This document shows, piece after piece, positions 7,217 through 36,256 of a stretch of DNA of 64,000 nt (within the stretch, counting starts at the first letter, position 1; each line of letters begins with the position of its first letter). Source of the stretch: a virus; the IMG/VR virus record IMGVR_UViG_3300045988_127310, one strand, 5' to 3'. The notes beneath the pieces were generated by a model that did not search any database, was not told the DNA's origin, and worked only from the letters and a program-made list of their open reading frames with translations. The translations under genes and the position numbers were made by a program.

Positions 7217-8080
7217 ATGGAATTAAAGGATTTTAAAGATGTAATTAGAGTGATGACAAAAGAAGAGTTCGAATCAGCAATCAACGAAGATATTAAATTC
7301 GTTGAAATATTTAAGCATTTTTTTAAACATGATGATGATGCGAGGATAATAGAACACGTAAAGTCAGTGTTAGAAGCATCAGTAGATTACTTCTATCCTA
7401 ATCATCCTGAAGTAGAATTTGAAAAAGATTTTAATATACAATACGATGTCAATAAGATCTTGAACAAATACGGCCACACCGAAATGGGTCTGTATAAAAT
7501 ACAGCTCTATGTAGAGAAGATTTTGGGTAGTATTCAAAACAAGAAGCCTGTAGACGTGGGAGAAGTCTCTGACGGATACCACACTTTCAATGAATTGTAT
7601 CGGTATCGCATGTTGTATAACGCTGCCTTCTTTAATCTATTAGCCAGAAGCGGACAGGTTGAAGTTTGCAAATCAAGGAGACACAGCGACGGAGAAAAAT
7701 GCTTCGGTTCTGATGATTGGTTTATTGTGATGGCGATCCTACCTACCGGTCAGGTATCTAATCACTATGAAAGCAAATACTGGGATTTGTTTGATGTTCC
7801 TGAAAGAGAGACCGCTTTCGAATACGATGGCCATACATCAAATGAAGCTGCCGACAGACTTAAAAAGTATCTCAAACTGCCTCGTCGTGGCATGACATTC
7901 GAACAGGCTTTAGAACGGCTTAAATTAGGTAGTAAGATAAAAAGAATCGATTGGGGTAAAAAGTATATCTGTATATTTGACGTAAATATATTGATGGTAG
8001 ATACAGGTCAAAAAGTAGCATCAAATTGGAATCCAACCGAACATGATATTATGTCTAATGACTGGGAGATTGCGGGATGA
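7217..8080 (+). CDS. fusion protein with a C-terminal DUF2829/Tad2-like domain (candidate anti-Thoeris signal sponge) and an uncharacterised ~225-aa N-terminal region
   Basis: The C-terminal ~60 aa (MTFEQALERLKLGSKIKRIDWGKK...WNPTEHDIMSNDWEI) fit the M-x-F-x-E-A-L...K-x-G-x-K-[VI]-x-R-x-x-W ... W-x-P/S-x-x-D-x-x-x-x-D-W pattern I associate with DUF2829/Tad2. This is recall only, not a database hit. Confidence 0.5.
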   Translation: MELKDFKDVIRVMTKEEFESAINEDIKFVEIFKHFFKHDDDARIIEHVKSVLEASVDYFYPNHPEVEFEKDFNIQYDVNKILNKYGHTEMGLYKIQLYVEKILGSIQNKKPVDVGEVSDGYHTFNELYRYRMLYNAAFFNLLARSGQVEVCKSRRHSDGEKCFGSDDWFIVMAILPTGQVSNHYESKYWDLFDVPERETAFEYDGHTSNEAADRLKKYLKLPRRGMTFEQALERLKLGSKIKRIDWGKKYICIFDVNILMVDTGQKVASNWNPTEHDIMSNDWEIAG

Positions 8081-9503: not shown

Positions 9504-9553
9504 ATATAAAGTCGGGCATGTGTCTTGTCTGACTTTTTTTATATATTTGTGGC

Positions 9554-9877: not shown

Positions 9878-9929
9878 GCTGAACTTGACGATTTTTCGTC
9901 AGATTATAATTTTTTTTCATATCATTTTT

Positions 9930-10019: not shown

Positions 10020-13000
10020 ATGGTATCAACGTGTATTATTAAAAGAGATAATAAAAAGAAAGTTGTTTCTGTCTCTACCAGATCAGGGGACAGGTCTATG
10101 TTGTTTGATAAAATAGCATCTGTTCCTCTTATGGAGAACAGGGAGCGGGCTACTACTGTTTTTAAAACCGTATTTTCCAACAAGTTCTTAAAGGCTTTTG
10201 GCGACTGGAGAAAGAGAGTGCCTATCAACAAACAGGCTTATAATAAGGTAAAATCCAACATCGATCTTATCCCAGAAGCCTATAGAGAAAGGGTGCTGGA
10301 TAAGGCTTCTAAGATGAGTAATCCTGTTCTTGTATCAAAATCAGATGCAACTTATGGGATTCAAGAATCAGGCTTCGGATTCTATAGCCAAGATCTGGGT
10401 GATAATATTATGTTGGTGGATGCTATGATCCCATCAAGTATTTCCGTACCGGAAGAACCAGGAATAGACGCCGGGCAGTATTTACAAGATGCTATATTTT
10501 CGGACTTCACTCCCGTATCTGTGGTACAGGATAAGGGTGTTAATTATATGGTTATAAAAGACGGTCTTAAGATATTTAGCCCAGAAGAGCTACCAGAAAC
10601 AGATTCTAATCCTGTGGGTGTAACGTATCAGACTGGAGAGCCTCGTTTGTTTTTCATGAACGATCGTAGTCAATTATTTGAAGATTACGGAGAAGCTCTT
10701 CGCTCTGGCGGGAATGATATCAGAATAGGGTTCTTATCAGGCACCGTTCAAGAATCTACCGTGGATGGCGTGGCAGACATTACTTACAAAGCTGGAAAGT
10801 ATGTTCTTAATAATCCCAAATCTTTTATACCGGTCATGACCGCTTCTGCTTCTACTTCTTTATCAACAAAAGGTGGTATAATTAACTACCTTATAAAGAA
10901 AGGTCTTTTGTCCGGATCTAAGATATTCGATCCTGAAACAAGAAGCTATTATCTTACAGGAGAAGGTCATACAGGACAAATTAGACTTTTCAATTCAGCC
11001 TTATCATACACCGAGCTCCGTAATCATTTTGGTTCCGATGTTTCCATGAACGACCAAGGTATGATAACCATAAGCTCGTTGGATAACAGTAAGGTAACTA
11101 TGAGACTCGCCACCGGAGGAACGGAAAGGATTAGTAGGGAACAGATAAAGAACGATCTTAAGTCAGGAAGATACAATGAATTGGACGCCAAGTACGATCA
11201 TTTTGATGCGCTTGTAGTTTCATTCATATTAGAAGATAACGATCTTTATGCTGATACTAAAGCTAAGATCGTATCAGATTATAGCAGGCAGGAACGTGAC
11301 CAACGAAATTCTATTGTCGAGATACTGAAAACGCTTGGCGTTAGTGTCATAGGTATGACCGACTATATAGAGAAGTACCAAACCAAATACGGGCACGAAC
11401 CTTCTGCTAAGGCATTGGCGGATATTGCTAATAACGTAATAGCAGTTGGTGAAGATGCTACTTTATCTGATTTAGTAGAAGAAACAGCCCACTTTCTTGT
11501 AGAGGCATACAGAGATCAGAATGCTGTTGAGGCTGTTCTGCAAGATGTAGAAGGTACGGAAGAGTGGAACCAGTATGCAGGTCAGTATTATAATACATAC
11601 GGTAAAGCGTATGAAGGAGCTGAGCTTGATAATGCTGTTAGGAGAGAAATTCTTGGAAAGATCCTCGCCAGGGAGATGCAGGCCGGCACAGCACAGGCGC
11701 CGGTAGAGCCCACCTCCTTCCTGGGGCGCGTCCGGCAGCTTTTCTCTGGAATCGTAAGCTGGCTTAAATCAGCTTTATCAACCCAAAGACAAGATTTGAA
11801 TAACGTTATTAAAAACATTCGTGATCTTGCCATTACTGACATAGATAAAGGATTTGACACCTCTCTGTTAAAGGATAATGACTTTACATTATACTCCCTT
11901 TCTTCTATGAACAAGAACAAGTTTCTTGAGTCTAAGATCAGATCACTAAGAAAAACATTAAGAGACTTACGTCAGATAAGCTCTGATAGGGCTGTAACTA
12001 CGTCTATGACCCTTGCGCAGCTTAAGACCATAGAAGATAAGATAAATAAGGTAGAGACCGAAATAGACAAGAATGAGATGGCGGCTGCCATGAACAGCAT
12101 GATCTCCACAGCCGAAGCTCAGGTCAGATACTTAAGCAATGTGGTGAACACCATCCTTCATGGTGATACCAAAGACGGCAAGCTTCACTTCAACACCAAT
12201 GATCGAAAGAACGTAGATATTATCAACAATCAGGTTCTTCCGATCATGAACGATCTTCGAGGATATATCCGTAACAGAAGTACCGAATTTGATGAACGTG
12301 AAAAGCAGGATTATACAAATAGGATCAACACCGTCATTGCCGACATCAATGGTATTCAGTCTGATATTAAATCAGTACAAGACCTTGATGAAAGTACGTT
12401 GCTTGATAAGTTAATGAACGAACTTCATGTGCCGGCAGATAAGGTAAAGAGAGTAAAAGAATTTTTCGACAAGGTTCAACACGATGTTTCTTGGATAAGT
12501 AGGTGGTTTGGTATATTAGAGCATTCTTCCAGTCCGTTCAATAACGCTCTTGGAGCTATGATTGCCAAAGACAATTACAATGCGATGGTGAATGCCCAGC
12601 CCGCCATATCCGATTTCCTGGCATATGCGAAAAAGCATGGTTTTAACAAATCTGAATTTGAAAAACTGCTTCAGAAAGTAGACGGCAAAACTTCTAATTA
12701 CCTTCGTAGTGCTCTTGATATGGCTAAATACGATCGTAATAAGAAGCTGGCGCAGATGCGAGCGTTTGCGACTGCCATGAACATAGAGATATCAGAAGAA
12801 GAAATTGGTGATGTGGTTGACAATAACCGTAATTACGTATTTAAAAGAGAAGTAGTTGACAAGGATGGAAATACGGTTACTGAAAACGCTAAATTCAAAC
12901 CATCGTCTGATAGGGTTAATACCGATATTTTTACCATCGAGCAGGAAAAGATCTATACGGAACAGATGGAAAAGTGGGATGCTGAAAATTCGGAACTGGA

Positions 13001-16000
13001 ATTTAGTGAAAGTTATGCCACAAGAATGGAATCCATATACAAAAAGGCTGAAGAAGAATTAGGGCATCCAGTTTCTCAAACAACCAAAGAATACCTTAAT
13101 GCTCTATCCAGGCAAAAACGGATACTGAGGCAGCCTTTTATTGATAGCGGTGGTAATTTTGATGAAGTTGCCTATTTTAAAAGCAGCAATTACGAAGAAG
13201 AAGGACTGCTTCGTAAACAACGTAAAGAAGCAGCTTCAGAATACATATATGTAGGAACCAGGAGAGTGGAAAAAACCGGCGACCAACTTAAGATGGCCAA
13301 AGAAATACAAGCTATAAATGAAGTTTGGAGAAAGGAATCAAATAATGTTACTAATGCCGTATCAGAATCGTTTTTGCAAAAATTGAGAGCGATTCAGAGC
13401 GAATCAGGAGGGGAAGCTGCATTGAGAACGCTTATGTTGGGTGGTCACCTGTCATTCAACGATCGGTTTTGGAATGATATAGAATCGGAACAGTCAGCGC
13501 GCACCGAATCAAATAACAAGGCTTCGTATCTCAAAATGGCGCATGATATCATTAGTTCTACGACAAGCGATAGAGATGCGACTGACGTGGATTCTATTGT
13601 GAAAGATATAGAAAAAAATAAGGCTATTATCAAGGAAATAATCGGAAACAATCGCGATGTGGCTGATATCGGAGAAATTAACGAAGCAACATTTACCTCA
13701 TCCGAAAGAGATGCTTTTAGGGCCGCATCTGAAGCTATTGAAGCCGATTACGCTATTTTGATAGATTATGCTAAGATGGTGGGTCTTGAAGATATTGATA
13801 AGTACCTTACTAAAAGCAATAAGGCTGAAAACGAAGTAAATCAGTCTTATTTAAATGCTCTTGCTGACTCCAAGGAAGTGGAATGGAAGTTCGTACAACG
13901 TCATACTACGGCGAAGAAAGCAAAAAGGATTCAGGCTTTAAGGGATAAGCTGTTTAAGGCTGCTGATAACCGATATCTGTTTACCGTATCTGAAACCAAC
14001 TACCTGTCAGAAAAGCTTGGTATAAGCAAAGAATTAGACGGTAGAGATTTTAGGAATGCTGTTAATGCTAAGATGGCCAGCTTGTTTTTAAATAATACAA
14101 GAGAAGAGGGTATAGAAGCTGACATAAAAGCGGGCATAGAAGAGGCCAATGCTATTGTTAATGAATTTGCCAGGAGCCAGGTCTTTTCGTACTATAAACG
14201 CATGGCGCCTACTGGATATGCGGCTATGATCGACAAAATCGGTCGAGGTGAGATAGATGTGGCGCAGATGGTTAAGGACGTACAAAACGGTACATCCACC
14301 CAAGATTATGGCATGGATATATCGTACCTTTCTTTCGATCCTGCAAGGGCATGGGTGGCTGAATCTGAAGCCGAAAATAGCGGCCGTAATCCTGATTATG
14401 TAAAAGATCATGGGTATGGTCATCGAATGCCTAAGAAAAGCCTGTATCGTGATGAATCGTATTTCAATGACTTTGGCATCAAGTATGATGTTGACGGTAA
14501 TGAGGTTGCTACTAAAAATGTAGAGCAGTGGAATATGATTCAAAAACTCAAGGAAATAAAAAGACAATCCCTTGATCTATACAAAGAGCAGAGCCCGAAC
14601 CTGTATGCTATTCCACAGATATCAAAACAAGACATAGAACGTATAGAAGGATTGGGTATTAACTTCAAAAATACGGTTCGTAATTTTGTATCAGATCTGT
14701 GCCTGGACAGAGTAGACGATTCTCTATATGGTAAGACCAGGCAAGGAGAAGTGTATGACCCGGAAGACAGACTTAGGTCTATACCTAAATACTACATATA
14801 TGAGTTGGAGAACCAAGATGATGTATCTCACGATTTTGGCTACTCTTATTCGATGCTTATGATGCAGTCATCGTTATACAACGAAAAGCAGAAGTCTATA
14901 GAGCTCGCTCAAGGACTGGAACAGATGTTACTGAACAAGCAATTTGAAGGCGGTAAGAAGGCTGAAGCAACCCAAGCATATCAGATGTTCAGAGACTTCT
15001 TCAACGATCATTATTATGGCATTAGGATGAACACCAAAAGACTTACGGTGAACATCGGAGGATATACGGTAGACCTTACAAGAATTATGATGGCTGTTGA
15101 AAGATTTATGTCGGTCATGAACTTGGCACTGTCTCCGTTTGTGGCAGCTACCGGCGCCTTAACAGGTCATATCAACCTCATCATGGAATCTGCCGTAGGA
15201 CAGTATATAAGCAAAGACTCCCTTAAATACGCATCGGCTGAATTTTCACGCCTTGCTCCATCTTGTATAGCAGAAACCGGAGACATAGATAGGAAAAGTA
15301 AATTATATGTCATAGGTGAGAGAATGGGGATATTCAATATCCGAAATCGTATGTATGGTGCCGGATACAATAGAGCGGCCAGGACCTTAATGCGTTCGCC
15401 TATGTATGCTTTTATGGAAATCCTGAACTACCCTCTTGATCCGCAGGTTATGATTGCTACTATGGACAATGTTCGTTATTACAAAGGCCGGTTCTACACG
15501 CTCCAAGATTTCAAGATGGAAAAAGAACGCAATAAAGAACAGAGTACCATAAAAAGAGAATGGAACGCATTAAAAGATCGTACTTTATGGAGTATGGTAG
15601 ACGTCGTGGATGGGAAGGTGGTTGTAAAGCCCGGATCAGGTGTTACTGTTGAGGAAGTTGAAACCCAGATGGCTATAACCAGGAATCAAGTCCGTAGCTT
15701 GTCGCAGATATGTAACGGATCTTTGAATGAAGAAAACCGAACTGCTGCATCGCGCAACTGGATAGCCAGGTTCATGACCGCCCACCGAGGATGGTTGGTG
15801 CTGGCGGCTCAACGTCTGTGGAAAAGACGTGGCTTCAATTTCCAGACAATGCAAGAAGAGGAAGGGTTGTCAATTACGTTAAAGAATATGATAGCCAAAA
15901 CATTTAGCCTGGCTTCCGAGTCTGGTATGAAAAACATCATAGATGCCTGGAATGAAAATAAAGACAATATGAATGAGGTAGAAAAAACCAATCTCAAACG

Positions 16001-16466
16001 TCTCAGTGTCTATGCCGGCACGTTCCTTATCATGCAGGCCGTATCTATGCTTCTTGCCGGATGGCGTGATGATGATGAAAACGAAGAAAGTTGGCTTACT
16101 CAATTCGGATCCTATGTCGGATTCAGAACCATAAACGAAATAGCTTCACAGATGCCGTTTATTATGGAGCTTAACGTGGTAGATATCATTAACGATCCGT
16201 TTGTTATGGGGCGGAAACTGAAGGATCTTACCGATCTTAGGAATTATTCACTTGATAAAGTAACATCCGGCACATACAAAGGAGAGTCTAAGTTATTTAG
16301 GCAACTCGCCAAACAGACGTTTATCAAACAATGGTATAATATCAAGACGCCGGAAGACGTAGCGTGCGCTTATAATTGGTGGCAGCAGACGAACAACAAG
16401 TCAATGATGTTCTTCATCGGCGCCACTCCTGATTCGGAAGGTGATGAGGATACAAGCTACAAATAG
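10020..16466 (+). CDS. giant protein (2148 aa) with long coiled-coil stretches and a C-terminal hydrophobic helix; tape-measure-like or ejected-cargo-like; function unassigned
   Basis: Single uninterrupted ORF bracketed by terminators. It has coiled-coil-like heptad segments and a C-terminal hydrophobic helix (VYAGTFLIMQAVSMLLAGW). No polymerase, terminase or portal motif was recognised. Confidence 0.75.
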   Translation: MVSTCIIKRDNKKKVVSVSTRSGDRSMLFDKIASVPLMENRERATTVFKTVFSNKFLKAFGDWRKRVPINKQAYNKVKSNIDLIPEAYRERVLDKASKMSNPVLVSKSDATYGIQESGFGFYSQDLGDNIMLVDAMIPSSISVPEEPGIDAGQYLQDAIFSDFTPVSVVQDKGVNYMVIKDGLKIFSPEELPETDSNPVGVTYQTGEPRLFFMNDRSQLFEDYGEALRSGGNDIRIGFLSGTVQESTVDGVADITYKAGKYVLNNPKSFIPVMTASASTSLSTKGGIINYLIKKGLLSGSKIFDPETRSYYLTGEGHTGQIRLFNSALSYTELRNHFGSDVSMNDQGMITISSLDNSKVTMRLATGGTERISREQIKNDLKSGRYNELDAKYDHFDALVVSFILEDNDLYADTKAKIVSDYSRQERDQRNSIVEILKTLGVSVIGMTDYIEKYQTKYGHEPSAKALADIANNVIAVGEDATLSDLVEETAHFLVEAYRDQNAVEAVLQDVEGTEEWNQYAGQYYNTYGKAYEGAELDNAVRREILGKILAREMQAGTAQAPVEPTSFLGRVRQLFSGIVSWLKSALSTQRQDLNNVIKNIRDLAITDIDKGFDTSLLKDNDFTLYSLSSMNKNKFLESKIRSLRKTLRDLRQISSDRAVTTSMTLAQLKTIEDKINKVETEIDKNEMAAAMNSMISTAEAQVRYLSNVVNTILHGDTKDGKLHFNTNDRKNVDIINNQVLPIMNDLRGYIRNRSTEFDEREKQDYTNRINTVIADINGIQSDIKSVQDLDESTLLDKLMNELHVPADKVKRVKEFFDKVQHDVSWISRWFGILEHSSSPFNNALGAMIAKDNYNAMVNAQPAISDFLAYAKKHGFNKSEFEKLLQKVDGKTSNYLRSALDMAKYDRNKKLAQMRAFATAMNIEISEEEIGDVVDNNRNYVFKREVVDKDGNTVTENAKFKPSSDRVNTDIFTIEQEKIYTEQMEKWDAENSELEFSESYATRMESIYKKAEEELGHPVSQTTKEYLNALSRQKRILRQPFIDSGGNFDEVAYFKSSNYEEEGLLRKQRKEAASEYIYVGTRRVEKTGDQLKMAKEIQAINEVWRKESNNVTNAVSESFLQKLRAIQSESGGEAALRTLMLGGHLSFNDRFWNDIESEQSARTESNNKASYLKMAHDIISSTTSDRDATDVDSIVKDIEKNKAIIKEIIGNNRDVADIGEINEATFTSSERDAFRAASEAIEADYAILIDYAKMVGLEDIDKYLTKSNKAENEVNQSYLNALADSKEVEWKFVQRHTTAKKAKRIQALRDKLFKAADNRYLFTVSETNYLSEKLGISKELDGRDFRNAVNAKMASLFLNNTREEGIEADIKAGIEEANAIVNEFARSQVFSYYKRMAPTGYAAMIDKIGRGEIDVAQMVKDVQNGTSTQDYGMDISYLSFDPARAWVAESEAENSGRNPDYVKDHGYGHRMPKKSLYRDESYFNDFGIKYDVDGNEVATKNVEQWNMIQKLKEIKRQSLDLYKEQSPNLYAIPQISKQDIERIEGLGINFKNTVRNFVSDLCLDRVDDSLYGKTRQGEVYDPEDRLRSIPKYYIYELENQDDVSHDFGYSYSMLMMQSSLYNEKQKSIELAQGLEQMLLNKQFEGGKKAEATQAYQMFRDFFNDHYYGIRMNTKRLTVNIGGYTVDLTRIMMAVERFMSVMNLALSPFVAATGALTGHINLIMESAVGQYISKDSLKYASAEFSRLAPSCIAETGDIDRKSKLYVIGERMGIFNIRNRMYGAGYNRAARTLMRSPMYAFMEILNYPLDPQVMIATMDNVRYYKGRFYTLQDFKMEKERNKEQSTIKREWNALKDRTLWSMVDVVDGKVVVKPGSGVTVEEVETQMAITRNQVRSLSQICNGSLNEENRTAASRNWIARFMTAHRGWLVLAAQRLWKRRGFNFQTMQEEEGLSITLKNMIAKTFSLASESGMKNIIDAWNENKDNMNEVEKTNLKRLSVYAGTFLIMQAVSMLLAGWRDDDENEESWLTQFGSYVGFRTINEIASQMPFIMELNVVDIINDPFVMGRKLKDLTDLRNYSLDKVTSGTYKGESKLFRQLAKQTFIKQWYNIKTPEDVACAYNWWQQTNNKSMMFFIGATPDSEGDEDTSYK

Positions 16467-16591: not shown

Positions 16592-16634
16592 TTGTTTTCT
16601 TACCGGTTCTCAGTCAGAGATGATAGGGAACCGG
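16592..16634 (+). terminator. rho-independent terminator (ACCGGTTC/GAACCGGT stem plus T-run)
   Basis: 8-bp perfect stem followed by TTTCTTTTAT, 126 nt after the giant ORF stop. It overlaps the track's nominal start (16620) of the next ORF. Confidence 0.6.
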
Positions 16635-16680
16635 TTTCTTTTATGTTGTCAATTATTGCTATCTTGCAAACAAAAAATCA

Positions 16681-17111
16681 TGAGACGAAGATTTCAAATA
16701 GGGATGGGGGTAAATCCCTCGCTTATAATCAATAAAGGCATATACATCCAACATGTAGATGGAGGATTATATACAAAAGAAAATTGGTCTAATAAAGGAT
16801 ATTCCAATGATCTATGCAATGGAATAGCTCTTGTAGATAAAGTGTGTTTTGTTATAGCCACCGAATATATTGGCACATTTCGTTGGGGTAAGAATGGAGA
16901 AATAGACAATATATTTGCACAAGATAGTTCTCATATTGGAACTATTAAAAAGGATTATTGGGGGCGTGAAAATCAGAATGCGTATCTTGAATATGATACC
17001 AGTAATACAGATTACGCTTTTAATAAAGCTAATAGCTATTTATTTAAAAATGGTCAAAATGGATATGTAGGTGGCGCCGGAGAGTTTTTTTTTGATATCA
17101 TTGTATGCTAA
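16681..17111 (+). CDS. hypothetical protein beginning MRRRF
   Basis: The ATG at 16681 lies after the terminator. The N-terminus is MRRRFQ. Gly/Asn/Tyr-rich, with a possible beta-rich binding module. Confidence 0.5.
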
Positions 17112-17302
17112 TGAAATAAACGAATGTCTTTTAATGGTAGGAGGTACGATAATGAGTAATAAAATGTGGACATCCACTCAATCTACACAATTTACCTATT
17201 CGTGGTATTATGATATAAACATCCAAGGAGATCATTTGGATACAAGTACAAGGAGTAATCCACGTTATGTCCGCCCCTTTACCGAATTAATTTTATGAAA
17301 TT

Positions 17303-18040
17303 ATGAGAAGAAGATTTGAAAATAATGCTAAACTATATGAGTATAAGATAGTTAGCAATTGTATAGGGGGGGGGGTAATCGTAGAGGGAAAGAAAGTAGG
17401 CACCATTCCACAGGGCGGGCAATTTATCTTTCTGTCTAAAAAAGAACGGCTGGATTCCATAAGTGTCCAAGGCGGTGTTCCAATGGAAGATAGGCGAGAG
17501 ATCGATAGTCAGGTTGATACGACAGAGAAATTGCTTGAACAGGATTCGGTGGTTCTTGCTATTGCTTTAGCAACCTCTTCTTATTATGGATTTAGAGTAA
17601 GTGTGATAGCACCTGATGAGTTTACGCTAAGAACAACCAATAGGATTAATAGAACCTTTTTAATAACAAGCTTTACTCCACCTGCTGCTATATACGGTGT
17701 AAACTTTGGTGATCCTATTGTCCTTAATTATGATAGTTACCAATATGAGATGCCAGATCTTGTAATTGATGGACCTCATGATAGAATAGTTAGGGCAGAT
17801 CCTAATCTTACTTGGGTTGTAGAATGTACAGACGCCGACTTTAAACCTTTGCCATATCCAAAATCATGGTCTGGCCAAGGTTTAAATTCTATGTTCTTAC
17901 CAGAAATGAAACGTCTTGCTCCTGGTGATCATCATGTATCATATACAGCTTATATTAATTTGGACTTGATAGATGATGGCGGAAGTAAAGTTCATACTGA
18001 ATATCTGATATTAAAAAAAACACTTAATTTTACGATATGA
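17303..18040 (+). CDS. hypothetical protein (245 aa) beginning MRRRF
   Basis: N-terminus MRRRFENN. Last rightward gene before the strand switch. Confidence 0.55.
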   Translation: MRRRFENNAKLYEYKIVSNCIGGGVIVEGKKVGTIPQGGQFIFLSKKERLDSISVQGGVPMEDRREIDSQVDTTEKLLEQDSVVLAIALATSSYYGFRVSVIAPDEFTLRTTNRINRTFLITSFTPPAAIYGVNFGDPIVLNYDSYQYEMPDLVIDGPHDRIVRADPNLTWVVECTDADFKPLPYPKSWSGQGLNSMFLPEMKRLAPGDHHVSYTAYINLDLIDDGGSKVHTEYLILKKTLNFTI

Positions 18041-18618: not shown

Positions 18619-18750
18619 ATTATTTCACTTTTACGATTTTAATAGAATCTCCGATATTGTATTCTCCTTGGTATCCAACGAATTTTATGATTCTATTATG
18701 TTTAAATATTGAAGGTGATTATATACAACTTTGCACCATCTATATAAAAC

Positions 18751-18795
18751 AGAAGCCGGATAATGATTAACGTATATCCGGCTTCTGTTTTATAT
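18751..18795. terminator. bidirectional terminator hairpin (AGAAGCCGGATA/TATCCGGCTTCT)
   Basis: 12-bp perfect stem flanked by A-run and T-run on both sides. Confidence 0.6.
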
Positions 18796-18797
18796 GG

Positions 18798-18986
18798 TTA
18801 AAATTCTTTTTCGTTACCACCTTTTTTAGAGGTGGTTTTATCAAAAAGAGGGTCGTTAGGATCTGTTTTGGGATTATAGCTAAATACACCTTTAGCTATT
18901 CTCTTCATATCCTTCTCTAATTTTCCACTTTTACTACTTCTGATCGTAGTAGTGGTTGATATTGTGAATTTCTTATTTTTTTTCAT
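18798..18986 (-). CDS. small basic ORF downstream of the transposase
   Basis: 62 aa; overlaps the transposase stop by 4 nt. Weak. Confidence 0.3.
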   Translation of the reverse strand: MKKNKKFTISTTTTIRSSKSGKLEKDMKRIAKGVFSYNPKTDPNDPLFDKTTSKKGGNEKEF

Positions 18987-19906
18987 GCCGTAATTTTCTT
19001 TAGTTGTGAATACCTTAATCGTCGTTTGGTATTCTGCAAAAATACATCGAATCTTTCAGATTCCGATAGATGTTTCGTGTTATATCTGAAAGATTCGCAA
19101 TCTACATATCTTTGAAGATGTTTTCTCGACACCCAGAAATGGGTTCCAGAAATCATTTTCTTCAAATGGCTCCAATATCCTTCGATTGTGTTTGTTGATC
19201 TTCTGCCTATTACATACGCTCCCTTTTTGTGATATACTTTTTGATGATCAAACTTTTCTTTGTCGATCCCGTTATACGCATACCATTCGTCAGAATATAT
19301 GGTAGAATTAGGATGAACGGTATTGTATATCAAAGGAAGTAAGGTTTTACCTTTTGTGTCTGTAACGACATAAGTGACAACAAATCCTTCTCGTTGGAGT
19401 GTCCCAAACACAGGGGTTTTATCTTTTAAAGATCTCCCCTGTGCATCTTTAACTTTATCCTTACTATGTCTATTCTTGTTTTTGCCACCAATATAAGTTT
19501 CATCCACTTCAATCTCGCCTTTCAAACACGGCTCTTTTATTTCAATACTAAAACAATTGTGAATACGTTGAAGCATAAACCAAGCCGTTTTCTGTGTTAC
19601 TCCCACGATTTTAGACAACTGTAAAGATGATACTCCTCTTTTCATTTCAACAACAAAATAACAAGCCAGCATCCATTTTCGTAATGAAACCTTTGAATTT
19701 TCAAAAATCGTTCCTGTACGAACATTGAAGTATTTACCCGTGTTTTTACACTTGTACCTATTTCCTTTGCATTTATACACCTTAGATTCCGGATCAAAAG
19801 GAGAAACAACGTGATCTCCCCACCTTTCTTTTTCAAGAAAGGTTATACACGCTTGCTCATCAGGGAACAATTTTGAAAATTCAGGAAGTGATTTAAAATC
19901 GAACAT
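18983..19906 (-). CDS. IS1595-family (ISXO2-like) DDE transposase
   Basis: 307 aa. It has an N-terminal zinc-ribbon region, then a DDE-type core with the ISXO2-like pattern (GEIEVDETYIGGK ... YSDEWYAYNG ... TNTIEGYWSHLKK). Size and motifs fit IS1595-family transposases, which are common in Bacteroides. Confidence 0.7.
   Translation of the reverse strand: MFDFKSLPEFSKLFPDEQACITFLEKERWGDHVVSPFDPESKVYKCKGNRYKCKNTGKYFNVRTGTIFENSKVSLRKWMLACYFVVEMKRGVSSLQLSKIVGVTQKTAWFMLQRIHNCFSIEIKEPCLKGEIEVDETYIGGKNKNRHSKDKVKDAQGRSLKDKTPVFGTLQREGFVVTYVVTDTKGKTLLPLIYNTVHPNSTIYSDEWYAYNGIDKEKFDHQKVYHKKGAYVIGRRSTNTIEGYWSHLKKMISGTHFWVSRKHLQRYVDCESFRYNTKHLSESERFDVFLQNTKRRLRYSQLKKITA
18983..19906 (-). mobile_element. 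IS1595-family insertion sequence core; terminal inverted repeats not delimited
   Basis: Transposase gene only. Flanking AT-rich DNA gave no clear inverted repeats or target-site duplication. Confidence 0.4.
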
Positions 19907-20075
19907 ACTTCTTATCTTTATATTGGATTATAAAAATACAAAAATATATTCATATAACCAACTAAAAATCAATTAAATTCATCGAATATCTGATTTTGAA
20001 TTATTTTTTTTTTGTTGTTAAATTTCTAATTCTTTTCTATTTTTGAGGATTGTCTAACTTTATAATACTAATATC

Positions 20076-20471
20076 ATGTACAAGGAAACTGTCAAAATTG
20101 ATTCTATAGAGTGTACCATATTTTATGATCAAGATATTAATCTACCTCAAAAACAAGAAATAGATTTTGAATTTAAAATTGAAGACGTGCCCTCATACCA
20201 ATTTAAAAATGGACAAATCAATTCTTATGTTTCGGGTAAGATTTTTGAGATCAAGTCTATTTTACCTATAGAAGGCAATATTTCAAAATCTTCTTCTTTT
20301 GCTGAAATTCCTAAATTTAATATTACTTTTGATTTTCTATATAAATTATCTCTATTTCATTTGGAAAATCACTTGAAAACGTTAGAACTTGTATATAATC
20401 ATAAATTGGATAAAGATTCAATAACCAATATTCTTAAAAAGAAATTGGATGATTTTTTTTATCATAAATAA
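20076..20471 (+). CDS. hypothetical protein (131 aa)
   Basis: ORF in the cargo islet. Overlaps the 3' end of the leftward ORF 20434..20682. Confidence 0.4.
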   Translation: MYKETVKIDSIECTIFYDQDINLPQKQEIDFEFKIEDVPSYQFKNGQINSYVSGKIFEIKSILPIEGNISKSSSFAEIPKFNITFDFLYKLSLFHLENHLKTLELVYNHKLDKDSITNILKKKLDDFFYHK

Positions 20472-20682
20472 ATTTATCATACTCTTCTTTCGATATTCTT
20501 ATGCCATCTTTAAAATAGATGGCATAAGGCGTTTTTTCTGGTATAACTACAGAAATATATCCTTTTGAATGTAATATTTTCTGAAATTTATCATTGTCAA
20601 AAAAATAATAACTTTCAAGTAAATGGATATATTCTTTATCTGTTAACCCCCAAAGACTTTGATAATCTTCTAAATGTTTCAT
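20434..20682 (-). CDS. hypothetical small protein
   Basis: Its ATG directly abuts the conserved 38-nt element at 20681-20718. Confidence 0.45.
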   Translation of the reverse strand: MKHLEDYQSLWGLTDKEYIHLLESYYFFDNDKFQKILHSKGYISVVIPEKTPYAIYFKDGIRISKEEYDKFIYDKKNHPISF

Positions 20683-20718
20683 AACTGTAATTTTTAAAAG
20701 TGAATAATTAATTGATTT
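20681..20718 (-). promoter_or_regulatory. conserved 38-nt promoter/leader element, copy A (ATAACTnTAAnTTTTAAAAnTGAATAATTAATTGA)
   Basis: 35 of 38 nt identical to 43481-43518. Both copies end exactly at a leftward ATG. Confidence 0.45.
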
Positions 20719-20720
20719 AT

Positions 20721-20760
20721 AAAAAGAAAGCGGTGATAAACTAAGTTACCACCGCTTTTA
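20721..20760 (-). terminator. rho-independent terminator for the lipoprotein/OMP transcript (AAGCGGTG/CACCGCTT)
   Basis: 8-bp stem; a T-run on the minus strand follows the lipoprotein stop. Confidence 0.55.
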
Positions 20761-20778
20761 CTATCATATTGTTTCGTA

Positions 20779-21174
20779 TTACTTTATTTTGTACATTGAG
20801 AAATCTTCAAAATCACCAGATATACAATCAAGTTTCAGCCAACCTTCTGACACCTTTACATCATAAACAATAGGTGGCTCAGGGTCACTATCAAATACAA
20901 TGACTAATCTCATTGTATTTTTATCAAAAGAGTATGTGAAAGGATCTGGGCTTTTCTTTTTGCCTTCATTGTAATATACAGTCATTACGCCTGTATCGTC
21001 ATTATAAAATGTGAGTTCGAAAAATTCATCTGCGGGGAATTGCTCTCCCCATGAACCTATTAATATGCTGTTATTGTCATTATTCACATTATCGTCGTTA
21101 CACGAAAATGTGAATAAAAGTAGCAAGGTTAATAATATATGTAGTACTTGTTTCATGTTATTGTTAAAATTCAT
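20779..21174 (-). CDS. lipoprotein (signal peptide plus lipobox FSC)
   Basis: The N-terminus MKQVLHILLTLLLLFTFSCNDD is a type II signal peptide with a lipobox cysteine. Confidence 0.65.
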   Translation of the reverse strand: MNFNNNMKQVLHILLTLLLLFTFSCNDDNVNNDNNSILIGSWGEQFPADEFFELTFYNDDTGVMTVYYNEGKKKSPDPFTYSFDKNTMRLVIVFDSDPEPPIVYDVKVSEGWLKLDCISGDFEDFSMYKIK

Positions 21175-21868
21175 ATCCTACCTTTATACTAAATCCGTTC
21201 ATGTCACCACTTCCATCTCCCCATTCTTCATCAAATGATACCTTTTGTATAGAATATCCTATACCTAAATTAACAGCTTGTTTTTTAGTAGTCATAAACC
21301 GTACACCAATAAAAGGGTTACAATACAATCCACCTTTTTTTGCATGTCTTGGTGCTTCTTTAGTATTGAACTTATACCCTATTCTTAATGCAATAAAAGG
21401 TGATATTGGACCATTTAAGGCATATCCTCTCACATCAGCAAATATAGGTATGCTTACTGTTGAATAATCGGTCATATAGTGTATGCCGGTTCCACCTCCT
21501 ACAAATAAATACTGATTGATTTGGCTTCCATACGTGAAATATAATTCTGGACCTTTGTATCCACCTGCCCAGTATCCAAGATCAATCATAAATCTACTCC
21601 CTGTCAAATCGTACTTTTCATTGGATATCTTAAATGGAATTTTAGATTCTTTCTCTTCTTTGGTTATTTTACTGATATCTTCCATAGGGTACACAAACGT
21701 ACTACCATCAGAAGTGCGAATAGTAATTTGCTTGTCTGGTATCTGCTCGATAATAACCCCTTTTATAACACTTCCATTTTTTAAATGAATAGCTTCAACC
21801 ATTTTGTTCTGTGAGTAAGCGCATACACTACCCAATAGAACAACTAACAATAATAGATACTTTTTCAT
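21164..21868 (-). CDS. outer-membrane beta-barrel protein (Bacteroidetes OMP, porin-like)
   Basis: Signal peptide MKKYLLLLVVLLGSVCAYSQ; alternating amphipathic strands; C-terminal VGYEF aromatic terminus typical of beta-barrel OMPs. Confidence 0.65.
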   Translation of the reverse strand: MKKYLLLLVVLLGSVCAYSQNKMVEAIHLKNGSVIKGVIIEQIPDKQITIRTSDGSTFVYPMEDISKITKEEKESKIPFKISNEKYDLTGSRFMIDLGYWAGGYKGPELYFTYGSQINQYLFVGGGTGIHYMTDYSTVSIPIFADVRGYALNGPISPFIALRIGYKFNTKEAPRHAKKGGLYCNPFIGVRFMTTKKQAVNLGIGYSIQKVSFDEEWGDGSGDMNGFSIKVGYEF

Positions 21869-22363
21869 ATGAAATAATTTTGCTCTTTCTGCCTCCTTCG
21901 AAAGATTAACAAAAAAAAGAAGCGTGGAGACTATTGGATACTACCGCATTGAGGTCTTGGACTACCCTTCGCACAATAGTAAACAATAGCCCCACGCCTT
22001 ATGTCAGTATACTATTATCCCTCTTGTATAATCAGAATGCGTATACAACAACATAGGCGTAGGAGCTGTATGTCTATTATCTTGTGCGAATGAAAGTGTC
22101 CAAGTTTCAATGCAAGATAATATCTTAACGCTTCTACGTCTTTATTCTAATACGTGAGGGCAAAGATAGTTATTCTATCTAATATTTTAAAACGGCTTAA
22201 AAGGATTTAATTTGATGTAAAATGAATATTGGGAATTTTAACAGTTCGTGTTTTTGCATAAACAACAAAATATCTAAGATCATGAACAAATGCAAAAAGC
22301 CATCAAGAGAAACAGCCAGTAAAGCAGGCAAGTTATTAAGAAAGAAGATATCTTCCAAAGATG

Positions 22364-22708
22364 TTAAAACTCTTGCAGGTTACACTTTACAAGCCGCTTC
22401 CCGTCGTGGAAAAAGTAAGAGTGGTTGCCAAAAGAAAGGAAAATAAGTTCTTTAATACAAGCTTTTGGTATGGTCATTATACCAGAAGCTTGTTCTAATG
22501 TATTGGAATTACCAACAGCATAATGACCAGCTACAGATATAGATCTCTCATTTTCATGTACAACAATACCATAGCTCTCTATTTCTGATATATCTGTTTC
22601 GTAATCCTCCAGATCTACCCATGTTCTTTCTGATAGGTTGGAATCTATCCACTTAACTAATACCCGCTTGTTTAAAAGCGATTCTTTTTTATGTCTATTC
22701 TTTTTCAT
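22364..22708 (-). CDS. hypothetical protein (114 aa)
   Basis: Leftward ORF, preferred over the overlapping rightward 74-aa ORF. Confidence 0.45.
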   Translation of the reverse strand: MKKNRHKKESLLNKRVLVKWIDSNLSERTWVDLEDYETDISEIESYGIVVHENERSISVAGHYAVGNSNTLEQASGIMTIPKACIKELIFLSFGNHSYFFHDGKRLVKCNLQEF

Positions 22709-22817
22709 AACTTGTTATATTGATTTTTTAATAAACGAAAAGAGATTGTGCCAGCATTTTGACACAATCTCAATTATATGGGAATAATACTAAGGAAAGG
22801 TGTAAAGTGGTATATAA

Positions 22818-23006
22818 TTACCAAAATTTGTAACCTGGTTTTACAGCTTCCGCTTCTTCTCTCGTATCAAACATTAAGGTAGTGACAGCTCCTATGCCTT
22901 CGCAAATGTAAGACACTTTCACCCACCACCTAAAAATACCAGAACCGTAATCATCATAGTACGGCTCGGAAAGAATCTCTTCTACATACCCATCTAAATA
23001 ATTCAC
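22818..23006 (-). CDS. hypothetical small protein
   Basis: 4-nt overlap with the upstream gene. Confidence 0.35.
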   Translation of the reverse strand: MNYLDGYVEEILSEPYYDDYGSGIFRWWVKVSYICEGIGAVTTLMFDTREEAEAVKPGYKFW

Positions 23007-23725: not shown

Positions 23726-24251
23726 ATTTTAGATTTTCAAGTTCGTGTATTTGTAACTTAAGAGACTTAATTAAATCCGTTCTCTGCTCCTCTGCATGTT
23801 TTAAAGCCTCTTCCTTGCTTTCAAAAGCACAATCCCCTATCTGATAAGGGGTGTAACGACCAGGAGTGTCGGCTAATAAAAGACCACCACAATCTTCTAT
23901 TCTGGCTTTTACCTTTCTTATTTTCCCATCTTTTAGACACATGTCCGTAACCCATACGAATTTACCATATAATTTATCATACTCTTCTAATCTCTCTTCT
24001 TGCAATTCATACCATTTAGGCTTAGGAAATCTTAATGTGAATTTAATTTCGGTATCTTTCTCTAAGACATTAATATCATACGCCTCCGGCCACAGTTCTT
24101 TTATGCTGTCTTCATCTTCAGCATACGCCACCAATACAAATGAATTATCGGATTCTGCACTACACCAATATGGATATTTTATAGGCCATTTGACTGGACG
24201 GTAGTCGTTGTCGCAGTCGGATTTTTTAATGTAAAATCTTGCTCTAATCAT
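23709..24251 (-). CDS. hypothetical protein (180 aa)
   Basis: Colinear ORF. Confidence 0.55.
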   Translation of the reverse strand: MIRARFYIKKSDCDNDYRPVKWPIKYPYWCSAESDNSFVLVAYAEDEDSIKELWPEAYDINVLEKDTEIKFTLRFPKPKWYELQEERLEEYDKLYGKFVWVTDMCLKDGKIRKVKARIEDCGGLLLADTPGRYTPYQIGDCAFESKEEALKHAEEQRTDLIKSLKLQIHELENLKFECDD

Positions 24252-25449
24252 GATTCTTTTATTCTTTTAAGTATATGTTCAATAACTTTAATAGTCCACC
24301 CGTTTCCCAACATCTTGTACTGTTGGGTTTCGCTGCATTCCCATTTATACCAATCTGGTACAGTCTGTAACCTGGAGCACTCTGTAGGGGTTAATCTTCT
24401 TATTCTGAAATCGCCATGTAATGTTCTCTGTATGATAAAATTGTTTCTATCATATGAATTACAAGATAATGTTGGAGTCTTATCTTCATGAAATCCACCT
24501 TTGTTAAATCCTCTTGGTATTTGGAAAATAAGATTATCTTTCTGAACTGTTGTGAGACAATTGGATTTTCCATCGTTTTTAAATTCAATCATCTGAACTG
24601 TTTTAAGACCAGATTCTCTACATGTAGGTTTTTCTGGATTCCTACCTCTCATTGCTACACAAATAAGATCGTACGTGTATTTACCCTTTACGGTAACAGT
24701 ATTGGATTTTTCATCTTTTGTTTTAATATTAGCTCCATAATAATTCCCCTTGTCGTGATTTCTTTTCAAGTGAAAAGCTAAATTGTTTAAAACTTTTTCA
24801 GATAAGTAATATTTTTCATCTACTTCATATTCCTCTATATCACTTATGGTCAAACCCTCGTCTTTAGGCTGAGGGATAATGCCGCCTTGAATATTAGTCC
24901 AATAAATACGTTTCCTGGTTTGAGCGGAAACAAGTGCTGAATTAATATGATTGCCTTTACACCCTATAGCATCATCGAATACCGGCTCCCATTTCTTTCC
25001 CATCTTAACGTTCTCAAGAAGAAACAACACATCAGGATTAGTTTTTCTTACATCATTCAAAATACGAATAAACTCCCAGAATAAGTAAGACTGACCGGCA
25101 AATTCAAATCCTTGTTTTTTTTTAATTCAAGATACTCATCAAGTGATTTGATTTCTATTCCTTCTACGGTAGACAACCCTTTTCTTTTTCCAGAAAAGGA
25201 CATATCTGTACATGGGCTGCCGGCTAAAATAAGATCTATGTGTCCAAGATCTTCTACATTCAAATCCCTTACATCTCCTACTTGTATCGTATTAGGGAAA
25301 TTTAATTGCGTTCGTTTAATAGCAAACTTATCTATTTCTGATGCATAATATACTTCAGGTGTGATCCCTACTTCTTTTAACGCTATTTGACCACATGACA
25401 TTCCGTCAAATAAACTTAACACTCTCATGGCATTATACACATTTTTCAA
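24248..25449 (-). pseudogene. Dcm-type DNA (cytosine-5) methyltransferase, split into two ORFs by a -1 frameshift within an A9 tract (phase-variable OFF, pseudogene, or homopolymer sequencing error)
   Basis: The N-terminal ORF carries motif I (LFDGMSCG) and the PC motif (GSPCTDMS). The C-terminal frame carries ENV (FLLENVKM), QTRKRIYW and the C-terminal RRLTPTECSRLQTVPDWY...LGNGW motifs. The frames join perfectly if the A9 run at 25115-25123 were A10. Confidence 0.8.
25115..25123 (-). repeat. homopolymeric A9 (T9 on the plus strand) tract at the methyltransferase frameshift point
   Basis: Encodes KKN in the N-terminal frame; one extra A restores a KKKQGFEFAGQSYLFWEF reading. Confidence 0.8.
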
Positions 25450-25741
25450 TTTTAATTAATTTTGATGATAGATACATATTCCATTTTCCTCTGCCTCTAT
25501 CACCTTTTTCGTTTTGTTTTTGGATTGTCAAGTACAGATCTCCGTCTTCACATACTTCAACTTTTTTCAAGAAGCCTATCATTTCATCTCCTGTTTCGTG
25601 TAAAATACGGATCTTATCTCCTTCTTTTAACCCATAATTGGAATCAAAGTATTCTTTTTTGATTCTATCAATATTGTCTTTATGTTTTTTTATAGCATAA
25701 AGCTCTTTTCTTAATAAATAATTTAGTTGTTCTATTGTCAT
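25433..25741 (-). CDS. hypothetical protein (102 aa)
   Basis: Colinear ORF. Confidence 0.5.
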   Translation of the reverse strand: MTIEQLNYLLRKELYAIKKHKDNIDRIKKEYFDSNYGLKEGDKIRILHETGDEMIGFLKKVEVCEDGDLYLTIQKQNEKGDRGRGKWNMYLSSKLIKIEKCV

Positions 25742-26295
25742 TTCTTCTCCTCCTTATTTAATGGTATTAATCCTTTCCCGTGCTTATCATACCACAGCAT
25801 AGCTATACAATTCCATGCACATTGTGCAAGATGAAAACATCCTGTATCAGAATCCACTCTTTCTCCTTTCATGTATTCTATCAGGTGTCTAAACATTGCC
25901 GCGCGATACCGTTCAAAGCCGTTGTCAAGATTCTGCCAATTATTAGGCCCATATTTCTTGGCTCCAGCATGATAGACTTTTACAATGTCCTCAATTTCTT
26001 CCATCGGAAGCAAATCCCATCGTAGTTTATCGTCAATGATGTCATTTTTCACCGATTTGTTTTCTCTGGATACTTTGACAGGAATAATACCCATAATGTC
26101 CGTTCCTATGATAAACGTCTCTCCATTGCAACAAACCTCAGCATATTCATCATCTACCTCTATGTCTGATACTGCCTCCACTATAGCTCCTCTGGCTATT
26201 TCTAATTCGGAACTGATTACATCACTTTCCAACATGCGAAAAATAGATCCTTTTGGATAAAGGATGTTTTTAGTATTATTGTCCATCTTTTCCAT
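25738..26295 (-). CDS. hypothetical protein; C-terminal half resembles an all-alpha NTP-pyrophosphohydrolase (MazG-like) domain
   Basis: C-terminal pattern RWDLLP..E...KYG.NNW...GFERYRAAMFRHL...GE..DSDTG..HLA. Assignment is tentative. Confidence 0.4.
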   Translation of the reverse strand: MEKMDNNTKNILYPKGSIFRMLESDVISSELEIARGAIVEAVSDIEVDDEYAEVCCNGETFIIGTDIMGIIPVKVSRENKSVKNDIIDDKLRWDLLPMEEIEDIVKVYHAGAKKYGPNNWQNLDNGFERYRAAMFRHLIEYMKGERVDSDTGCFHLAQCAWNCIAMLWYDKHGKGLIPLNKEEKK

Positions 26296-26962: not shown

Positions 26963-27319
26963 TTATATTATTCCTTCCAAATTTACTTTAATAGAACCAT
27001 TTATGGTTTTAATGCTCCCATCTATGGTCGAAATCACATCATCTATATCATTTATAATACTTTCCATGTCATCAACCACCTCCTCCATATCAGTTACAGC
27101 CTGATCTGACTCCCAATATCTTTCTGAGTCTTGTAACGATTCCGGTATATTATCTCTCGCCTCAGTCTCTTCGTCTAAAATCATATCAACATCATCTTTG
27201 GCTGAATTTATGTTGCACTTCAACTCCGACAACTTTGATTTGATGTATTCAAAATCCGTTTTATACTTATTTACGTTGTTAATAACATCCAATATTTTTT
27301 TTCTTCTCTTGTTGTTCAT
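26963..27319 (-). CDS. hypothetical acidic protein (118 aa)
   Basis: Colinear ORF; Asp/Glu-rich. Confidence 0.5.
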   Translation of the reverse strand: MNNKRRKKILDVINNVNKYKTDFEYIKSKLSELKCNINSAKDDVDMILDEETEARDNIPESLQDSERYWESDQAVTDMEEVVDDMESIINDIDDVISTIDGSIKTINGSIKVNLEGII

Positions 27320-32843: not shown

Positions 32844-32874
32844 AACTTTTAAAATTTAATTGTTGATAAAAAAA

Positions 32875-35123: not shown

Positions 35124-35137
35124 GGTTCTTATTTTTT

Positions 35138-36256
35138 TTAATACAATGACTGTTCTTCTTTTGTCTCTTGTTCCTGATTGTCCGTAACGTCTTCCACAGT
35201 ATAGAGCTTAGGCGGCGTCGGCGGCTGGTTGGGGTTCACGAACTTCGTCCCGCCCTCCCCGTACATCCATCCATGTCCCGGCAGTATCTCTGGGTGGATT
35301 GTATTAGTAAGCTCTTCCATACTAACTTGCCTTACCTTCAGTATATGATGAAACACAAGTCCGGCTGTCCTGAATGATGTTTTGTTTTCAGTTTTAAACC
35401 TATCAAGAGTCTGATACCAATCTTTCCCAAATATCATATACTTATCCAGCCCGTACCTACGAGGATTGTGCAAACCTATCATTAACGTACATAACTGACC
35501 CAGCGTATCAGATTGGTAAAAATCAGAAAGACGCGGAGGTTGCTCTTGTGGGCTTTTTATCCTTCCTTCTATCTCTCTGTTGAATTGGGATATGATGAGG
35601 AAAAATATGTTTTTATATACTAATTTAGCTTCGTTCATAACCGCCACCAAATCATCTATAGCCGACTTAGGATCTAACCCCATTCTTTTTATCAAAGCAA
35701 TATGATCGACTTTAAATATTATAAGACGTTTGTCTTTGTGTTTGGTAGCTATATGATACACAGCCGCCTCAAACTCTTTTACCGTACACGGAGCATCGAT
35801 GTATATTATATTATTCCTGATTTCACCTTGAAGGATTTCAAACATCCTCATCTCTTCTACTGTATTAGAATCTTGCCTTCTTAATATTTCAGGAGCTCGC
35901 TTTTTCATATCCTGGCTCATTCTACGAAGAAGAAGATCTTGAGGATTCATTTCGAACTCGCAATTAACAAGAAAATAATCTTCTGCTTGCGGGTTGATCA
36001 TCGGATTCATCACATTTTCCAATATCTTTTGGGCCACATACGATTTACCTACAGATGGCCGGGCTCCTATGGCAATAGCGTGCTGAGGAAAAATACCTCC
36101 AAGCAAAGCCTCATCAATATAATCGTATCCGGTTTTAGCGGGGATAAGCTCTCCCCGCCTGTATTTCAAGATATTCTCATACGCCTCTTCCATAACCTGT
36201 TTAGAGGTCTTGAATATCCTTCTTATATCTATCCTATTTGCTATCTCCTCTTGCAT
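35138..36256 (-). CDS. DnaB-like replicative helicase (RecA-fold C-terminal domain)
   Basis: Walker A (GARPSVGKS), a Walker B/H2-like LIIFKVDHIALI, and an H3 SQFNR match to the DnaB SQLNR motif. Confidence 0.7.
   Translation of the reverse strand: MQEEIANRIDIRRIFKTSKQVMEEAYENILKYRRGELIPAKTGYDYIDEALLGGIFPQHAIAIGARPSVGKSYVAQKILENVMNPMINPQAEDYFLVNCEFEMNPQDLLLRRMSQDMKKRAPEILRRQDSNTVEEMRMFEILQGEIRNNIIYIDAPCTVKEFEAAVYHIATKHKDKRLIIFKVDHIALIKRMGLDPKSAIDDLVAVMNEAKLVYKNIFFLIISQFNREIEGRIKSPQEQPPRLSDFYQSDTLGQLCTLMIGLHNPRRYGLDKYMIFGKDWYQTLDRFKTENKTSFRTAGLVFHHILKVRQVSMEELTNTIHPEILPGHGWMYGEGGTKFVNPNQPPTPPKLYTVEDVTDNQEQETKEEQSLY

Follow-up and report, generated by a model that had tools for sequence, protein, structure and literature searches.

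The window analysed here is a stretch of viral DNA of 64,000 nucleotides (nt), IMG/VR record IMGVR_UViG_3300045988_127310, and the element in question is a predicted C5-cytosine DNA methyltransferase (MTase) gene that is broken at a homopolymer. A run of nine T residues on the plus strand (positions 25115-25123) is A9 on the coding minus strand, and two minus-strand open reading frames (ORFs) meet there. The features of the gene are as follows.

25057..25428, minus strand: ORF for the N-terminal part of the MTase (N-part), 123 amino acids (aa) followed by TGA (25057-25059); this exact product is on record
25115..25123, minus strand: A9 homopolymer, the frameshift site; the modal and ancestral length is A7
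24248..25114, minus strand: reading frame of the C-terminal part (C-part), ending in TGA at 24248-24250, with motifs VI and VIII, the target-recognition domain (TRD), and motifs IX and X
24552..24602, minus strand: in-frame segment of 51 nt (17 aa, TVQMIEFKNDGKSNCLT) within the variable/target-recognition region

The N-part more probably starts at the ATG at 25428 than at the TTG that lies upstream at 25449. Relative to the N-part, the C-part is shifted into the -1 frame, and the N-part ends in a tail of 19 out-of-frame residues (NKDLNLPVSLTYSGSLFVF) past the tract. One additional A (A10) produces a single ORF, as the first-pass annotation of this DNA had pointed out, with a length of 393 aa; two fewer (A7), a possibility that it did not mention, produce a single ORF of 392 aa in which the tract reads AAA AAA and encodes Lys-Lys within ...ELKKQGFEF.... 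The C-part of the window allele is free of any other stop or frameshift. Since translation stops after 123 residues at A9, which is out of frame, neither the TRD nor motifs VI-X are produced and the gene in the window is genetically OFF.

Both parts of the gene match Pfam family PF00145 independently, the N-part over profile positions 1-87 (E 6.7e-17, 62.3 bits) and the C-part over profile positions 150-323 (E 3.2e-18, 66.7 bits). The repaired protein scores 137.3 bits against this family (cut-off 22; E 1e-39) and matches PHROG 116, annotated 'DNA methyltransferase', at 1.9e-66. Read from the translation, motifs I (LFDGMSCG) and IV (GSPCTD) are located in the N-part, while motifs VI (ENV), VIII (QTRKR), IX (RRLTPTECSRLQTVPD), and X (GNGWTIKV) are located in the C-part; the six motifs occur in canonical order and align with those of DNMT3B and M.HhaI. 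The family profile and motifs indicate that the gene encodes a C5-cytosine DNA MTase. The first-pass annotation had described C5-MTase motifs split over two frames with the break exactly at the A9 run, and we found both to be correct, the identical split being present in independent assemblies. Its label 'Dcm-type' fits only loosely, as a term for C5-MTases in general. Among solved structures, those most similar to the protein are the DNMT3A/B catalytic domain (E 3.5e-18) and M.HhaI (3e-15), whereas 3lx6 and 3me5 ('Cytosine-specific methyltransferase'), which we take to be enterobacterial Dcm-type enzymes, match residues 337-389 only, approximately 50 C-terminal residues, at E values of ~1e-5 to 3e-5. 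The protein is thus not closest to the Escherichia coli Dcm (CCWGG) subfamily over its whole length including the TRD.

We found the A9 state in at least three sequencing runs assembled with two assemblers. A Logan contig from run ERR2227701 (L252) matches the window at 100% identity across 3053 nt; the corresponding identities of contigs from ERR2227670 (L251, Logan) and ERR2227669 (L253, MEGAHIT) are 99.91 and 99.96%, respectively. All three carry A9, and over the 2.4-3.4 kb compared with the window they yield the same gene calls of 123 and 270 aa. A9 is also present in a related genome (L034/L137). Furthermore, five control coding runs of 7-8 nt (A7 at 13612, A8 at 18013, T7 at 25685, T8 at 27295, and T7 at 28991) were invariant, with non-modal lengths in 0 of 111 cases, while the MTase tract was out of frame in 12 of 48 related contigs (Fisher p=2e-7). 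Among the 27 contigs that cover both the MTase tract and a T tract at 17085, which lies in a second broken gene of the window, the states of the two tracts were independent of each other (odds ratio 0.94, p=1.0), and the variation is thus not accounted for by a subset of poor assemblies. These data indicate that A9 is a real, inherited allele; the assembly error that the first-pass annotation had kept as one of its two options is rejected. Contigs of very low coverage were not relied on.

The length of the tract is heterogeneous among relatives of the window. The closest GenBank record is that of phage csAssE-Sib (151 kb, human gut, Caudoviricetes), which is 93.9% identical over the region and contains the gene as one intact coding sequence of 375 aa with an A7 tract (...ELKKQGFEF...). 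Across the 48 related IMG/VR contigs we found A7 in 35, A8 in 10, A9 in 2, and A10 in 1, such that 36 contigs contain a single in-frame ORF and approximately 25% of assembled genomes are out of frame. A scan of metagenome contigs added 13 sequences (12 with A7, one with A9), some of which duplicate IMG/VR entries. Alleles of A5 or A6 were absent from IMG/VR, and the sole evidence of A6 came from truncated proteins in Logan and the European Nucleotide Archive (ENA). In a collection of 15 billion proteins, the exact truncated product of the window occurs on 21 contigs and its 90% cluster contains 300 distinct truncated sequences, whose endings include the following.

Ending ...ELKKTRI: A8; 76, 23, 10 and so on contigs per sequence
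Ending ...ELKKNKDL: A9; 21 contigs
Ending ...ELKNKDL: A6, a length inferred from the product; 17, 6, and 2 contigs

Proteins with an in-frame A10 tract were found on two backgrounds, a form lacking the 51-nt segment (short form; L045/P0032, 14 contigs) and a form containing it (long form; P0035). The full-length clusters (1385 and 2935 members) were left out of frequency estimates because the neighboring 180-aa protein also falls inside them and they are therefore unusable as a denominator. The tract thus lies inside the ORF and shifts its frame in the manner of a contingency locus, with A7 and A10 in frame and A6, A8, and A9 truncating the product. Distant homologues (56-79% aa identity) carry interrupted tracts, namely AAAAGAA, AAAAAGCAAA, CTAAAAGAACAAGG, and CTAAAAAGCAAAGG, which indicates that only this clade has the run in uninterrupted form. 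Cultured Bacteroides phages, ARB14 and BO1 among them, carry intact MTase homologues. We considered whether some homologues in cultured Bacteroides phages were split, and rejected this, as features marked 'x2' proved to be an intact MTase of ~300 aa together with a neighboring gene.

We constructed a neighbor-joining tree of 54 sequences from the gene and 700 nt on each side of it, with the tract masked. On this tree, which has a length of 1.06 substitutions per site, the root state is A7, and no fewer than 11 changes of tract state are required, which involve 15 or more single-nt steps and 9 or more flips between ON and OFF. Sequences that differ in tract state can be very closely related.

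L045 and L140: A10 and A7, respectively; divergence 0.03%
L035 and L005: A8 and A7, respectively; divergence 0.14%
The window, L034, L002, and L067: A9, A9, A7, and A8, respectively; divergence at most 0.45%

The A9 state of the window is recent, at 0.24% divergence from an A7 sister. This reconstruction indicates that numerous independent changes of tract length have taken place in natural genomes, with both gains and losses of A and with both out-of-frame states reached. All A8, A9, and A10 alleles are otherwise intact, and none of the 14 OFF alleles examined (10 with A8 and four with A9) contains a second lesion. Purifying selection acts on the gene as a whole, with a median pairwise ratio of nonsynonymous to synonymous substitution rates (dN/dS) of 0.20; the values for the N-part and the C-part are 0.09 and 0.23, respectively.

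Our data suggest that the locus is probably a slipped-strand, contingency-type ON/OFF poly(A) tract, situated between motifs IV and VI of an orphan phage C5-MTase that is currently OFF. We regard the MTase as solitary, or orphan, because no nuclease gene is present among its neighbors; the adjacent endonuclease of a Type II restriction-modification (R-M) system is thus missing. From its in-frame ancestral length of A7, the tract has repeatedly moved to A6, A8, and A9, which are out of frame, and to A10, which is in frame again; in the model we propose, these changes in length would occur through polymerase slippage (slipped-strand mispairing) during replication of phage DNA. A8 and A9 may be less stable than A7, such that OFF alleles would be able to regain an in-frame length. 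Phage in the ON state would carry the predicted DNA methylation and be protected from a Type II restriction enzyme of the host, phage in the OFF state would be spared methylation-dependent (Type IV) restriction or the burden of the enzyme, and a mixed ON/OFF population would hedge across hosts. Switching within a population, its adaptiveness, and the anti-restriction role are inferred. The first-pass annotation had offered a phase-variable gene that is currently OFF as its other option. The OFF state at a hypermutable tract (A6-A10 in natural populations, with at least 9 flips and no second lesions) stands, while phase variation in the strict sense and the anti-restriction role that it named are still presumed.

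Several observations weigh against a contingency tract. The evidence is comparative, taken from natural metagenomic genomes, and high-frequency switching within a population would be an extrapolation from it. Terminal branches leading to OFF alleles are shorter than those leading to ON alleles (median 0.0011 vs 0.0044), a pattern that also fits recurrent, mildly deleterious knock-outs being purged. A7 falls short of the usual length of classical contingency tracts, AAA AAA for Lys-Lys is expected by chance at 37% GC, and AAG is found at only 2 of the 27 AAA-majority Lys codons of the gene; since nearly all AAA Lys codons remain AAA, a test for selection keeping the tract uninterrupted is uninformative. 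A10 could come from A7 by one insertion of 3 nt that bypasses the OFF states. Three runs of one project, 0-3 single-nucleotide polymorphisms (SNPs) apart, share A9 as their consensus, and in the window's own strain it looks stably inherited. A7 and A9 of one strain were not found together within the same project, the A7 sister being from other samples (ERZ1309965 and ERZ1309968), and this comparison is silent on switching within a host.

Some of these observations are shared by the main rival, a non-adaptive mutational hotspot. On this account, the MTase would be dispensable in many hosts, the A7 run would merely have a high mutation rate, and A6, A8, and A9 would be recurrent dead-end knock-outs that drift or are slowly purged, do not revert to any meaningful extent, and have no function as a switch. 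The short modal state, the OFF alleles that are mostly singletons on short tips, the stability of the window's A9 across three runs, and the lack of evidence of selection for an uninterrupted tract are all in keeping with it, as are other lesions of the gene in public data, namely a W362 codon changed to TAG in L012 and shifts of frame at GGAAAAAGAAAAGGG in two products, P0003 and P0011. However, with approximately 25% of genomes OFF and a single OFF allele on 76 contigs, the OFF state is frequent for one that is deleterious in a gene with a dN/dS of 0.2. A hotspot of dead-end knock-outs also fits poorly with the freedom of OFF alleles from second lesions (0/14), with in-frame A10 on two backgrounds, with a tight clade that holds A7, A8, and A9, and with two other genes in the same genomes that behave alike. 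We therefore consider a mutational hotspot unlikely as an explanation of the tract, albeit one that deserves serious attention.

We also asked whether A9 might be a site of programmed recoding, designed for transcriptional slippage or -1 frameshifting and giving both a full-length and a short product. The zero frame, TTA AAA AAA AAC, contains a perfect -1 slippery heptamer (A_AAA_AAA), and the product of a -1 shift and that of a transcript with one extra A would both equal the A10 protein. Furthermore, slippage by RNA polymerase is detectable on runs of at least 8 A, single-subunit RNA polymerases of phages slip far more, and a run of A11 rescues tssM1. On the other hand, rescue by E. coli-type RNA polymerase was slight or absent at the poly(A) lengths tested, and the A9 state is recent, being 0.24% from its A7 sister. 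Folding of the sequence downstream of the tract revealed no frameshift-stimulating RNA structure (minimum free energy -16 kcal/mol, z = -0.42 vs shuffles), the two-frame layout is not conserved, as most relatives have an in-frame A7, and A8 alleles would need the opposite shift. Because of these last three points, the A9 site does not appear to be programmed, and we hold designed recoding to be very improbable. A9 may nevertheless leak, with a small amount of full-length enzyme made if RNA polymerase slips (+1 A) or the ribosome slips by -1; such leakage would be incidental.

An indel introduced by sequencing or assembly, with a true genome of A10 or A7, has in its favor that homopolymers are a classic source of such errors and that the second broken gene of the window is also interrupted at a 9-nt run (T9 at 17085). 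The recurrence of A9 at 99.9-100% identity and in the related genome L034/L137, the invariance of the five control runs in the same contigs, and the failure of non-modal states at the two loci to co-occur leave an error of this kind with hardly any probability. A functional split enzyme, with each ORF supplying one subunit of an active MTase, is extremely unlikely: naturally split C5-MTases such as M.AquI exist and both parts retain Pfam matches, but the protein is interrupted within its catalytic domain, after motif IV and before motif VI, and not in the variable region, the first start of the C-part (TTG at 25060) would lose QGFEFAGQSYLFWEFIRIL, and the split is not conserved, as single ORFs with A7 predominate.

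A slipped-strand contingency tract in this gene would have counterparts in several known systems. Homopolymer switches of MTase genes are a classic theme in bacteria. In bacterial phasevarions, repeat tracts are located in Type III mod genes or in Type I/II MTases (Haemophilus, Neisseria, Helicobacter, and Campylobacter). The locus in the window resembles them in having a repeat tract in an MTase ORF where a shift of frame would toggle methylation. Phasevarions, however, are chromosomal, usually have longer or multi-nt repeats, and reprogram host expression, whereas the gene here belongs to a phage, has no nuclease partner, and encodes an enzyme that would act on the phage's own DNA. Orphan C5-MTases of phages counter host restriction, for example, the enzymes of Bacillus phages SPR and phi3T. 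Like these, the window gene encodes an enzyme of family PF00145 that stands alone, lies in a phage replication/early module, and lacks a cognate endonuclease; unlike it, the SPR/phi3T-type orphans and the homologues in ARB14 and BO1 are single intact ORFs for which no length-variable tract has been reported.

Among the closest systems is an A tract in the alpha-glucosyltransferase gene agt of phage T2. This tract (bases 288-296) toggles glucosylation of phage DNA and hence the balance between restriction by TgvAB and by McrA/BC; reversion was shown experimentally to be ~1000-fold faster than an SNP, with 7e-4 mutant reads, and the DNA-modification gene agt is among the A-tract contingency loci recently published for T2 and T4 (Gomez, Barrick & Waters, bioRxiv 10.1101/2025.10.21.683753). 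As in T2, the locus described here is a poly(A) run in a phage DNA-modification gene in which +/-1 frameshifts switch modification off, the proposed gain is escape from modification-dependent restriction at the cost of restriction when unmodified, and other homopolymers in the same genome behave likewise (there are many in T2). The T2 data are experimental, whereas ours are comparative and come from natural genomes. Furthermore, the T2 gene encodes a glucosyltransferase with a 9-nt tract, whereas the gene studied here encodes a C5-MTase with a modal tract of A7 and alleles from A6 to A10, in an uncultured human-gut phage of ~150 kb. Because the T2 agt tract is already a reported contingency locus in a phage DNA-modification gene, the first-pass annotation overstated its case in calling a phase-variable MTase on a phage notable as such. 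We found no literature that links crAss-like phages, MTases, and homopolymers, or that names csAssE-Sib, and no report of such a switch in this phage group or in a phage C5-MTase; what is new is the evidence from natural populations.

Two further coding tracts in the window vary among its relatives. A gene at 16620..17298 on the plus strand, directly downstream of an ORF for a 2148-aa structural protein (10020..16466), has no match in Pfam or PHROG. With T8 at 17085 it would be one ORF of 225 aa, and the T9 of the window (17085-17093) breaks it into 16620..17111 and 17071..17298. In relatives, counted as distinct contexts, this tract is T7 in 11, T8 in 59, and T9 in 10, with approximately 26% out of frame. 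The second is a G10 run at 17366-17375, at approximately codon 22 of an ORF of 245 aa (17303..18040, plus strand), which is in frame in the window. In relatives it is G6 in 1, G8 in 8, G9 in 23, and G10 in 17, the majority being out of frame, and it looks like a polyG ON/OFF locus beside the structural module. In Fletchervirus phages of Campylobacter, hypermutable polyG tracts that lie within receptor-binding proteins are reported to generate ON/OFF subpopulations (Sorensen et al. 2021, Cell Rep 35:109214). The G10 run at 17366 and the T9 run at 17085, which lie a short way downstream of a giant structural gene, are the loci in the window closest to this case, whereas the MTase tract differs from it in being poly(A).

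Taken as a whole, this gut phage lineage of ~150 kb might possess a multi-locus 'phasome', with at least three coding tracts toggling independently and the MTase switch serving as an adaptive bet-hedge between Type II and Type IV restriction; we put this forward tentatively, as a possibility that we judge somewhat doubtful. If true, it would provide natural-population evidence for phage contingency loci and for a phage-borne epigenetic ON/OFF switch. Should the switch be functional, gut phages would exist as standing mixtures of methylating and non-methylating members with an altered ability to cope with Bacteroidales restriction systems, and phage contingency loci, hitherto demonstrated in laboratory coliphages and in Campylobacter phages, would extend, on the basis of public data, to abundant uncultured phages of the human gut. 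Split ORFs at the MTase A tract and at the T and G tracts of the window are real alleles, and annotation pipelines should not silently 'repair' or discard them.

The MTase also varies outside the A tract. The 51-nt segment in the variable/target-recognition region is bounded by an 11-nt direct repeat (AACAGTTCAGA) at 24592-24602 and 24541-24551. The window has it (the long form), csAssE-Sib and many relatives lack it (the short form), and both forms are common. Further in-frame length variants include genes of 1164, 1167, and 1200 nt and a 7-aa QTQLNFP duplication in L013. A second, shorter A-rich stretch in the N-part (GGAAAAAGAAAAGGG, ~25178-25195, minus strand) is the site of frameshifts in other genomes, as indicated by the public truncated products P0003, which ends in ...GKEKGCLP, and P0011. 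We considered stop-codon reassignment and rejected it, as the stops that remain after normalisation of the tract are terminal stops located 1-2 codons early (TAA for GAA/TCA); the exceptions are a true change of W362 to TAG in L012 and one contig with 1x coverage.

The neighbors of the MTase are small ORFs without assigned function, a PF18909 dATP/dGTP diphosphohydrolase, and a superfamily 2 (SF2) helicase, and the neighborhood looks like a replication/nucleotide module.

25738-26295, minus strand: PF18909 dATP/dGTP diphosphohydrolase (MazZ-like), two genes upstream of the MTase

The PF18909 domain occurs in phages that replace adenine with 2-aminoadenine. Downstream of the MTase, the gene for the 180-aa protein was called as ORFs of 68 and 98 aa (2676-3205) in one contig (L254, ENA ERZ1309968) of 1.6x coverage, which is probably a low-coverage error. 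Neither a cognate bacterial R-M system, nor a near-identical host copy of the MTase, nor a closely related characterised enzyme was found, the best bacterial homologues being 41-56% identical and from Bacteroidales. The next-best relatives of the helicase are from Cellulophaga phages phi17:2 and phi4:1 and from Bacteroides phages. A host within Bacteroidota is plausible, and a crAss-like affiliation is hinted at only by the record name csAssE-Sib.

Homopolymers elsewhere in the window vary as well. Intergenic runs differ in length among relatives at 9910 (T8-T10; 9910-9917 in the window), 9534 (T7-T8; 9534-9540), 32868 (A7-A9; 32868-32874), and 35132 (T8-T10; 35132-35139), as would be expected from unconstrained slippage. 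A T7 run at 7318-7324, inside ORF 7217..8080, is 6, 7, or 8 nt long in a sample of only 5 sequences. Finally, a segment of ~4.1 kb (18714-22822) is missing in the closest relatives L034, L002, and L067, where ~22823 joins ~18713. It encodes an IS1595-family transposase (18983..19906, PF12762, E 4e-42) and a DUF5640 protein, and looks like an insertion sequence or accessory island in the phage genome.

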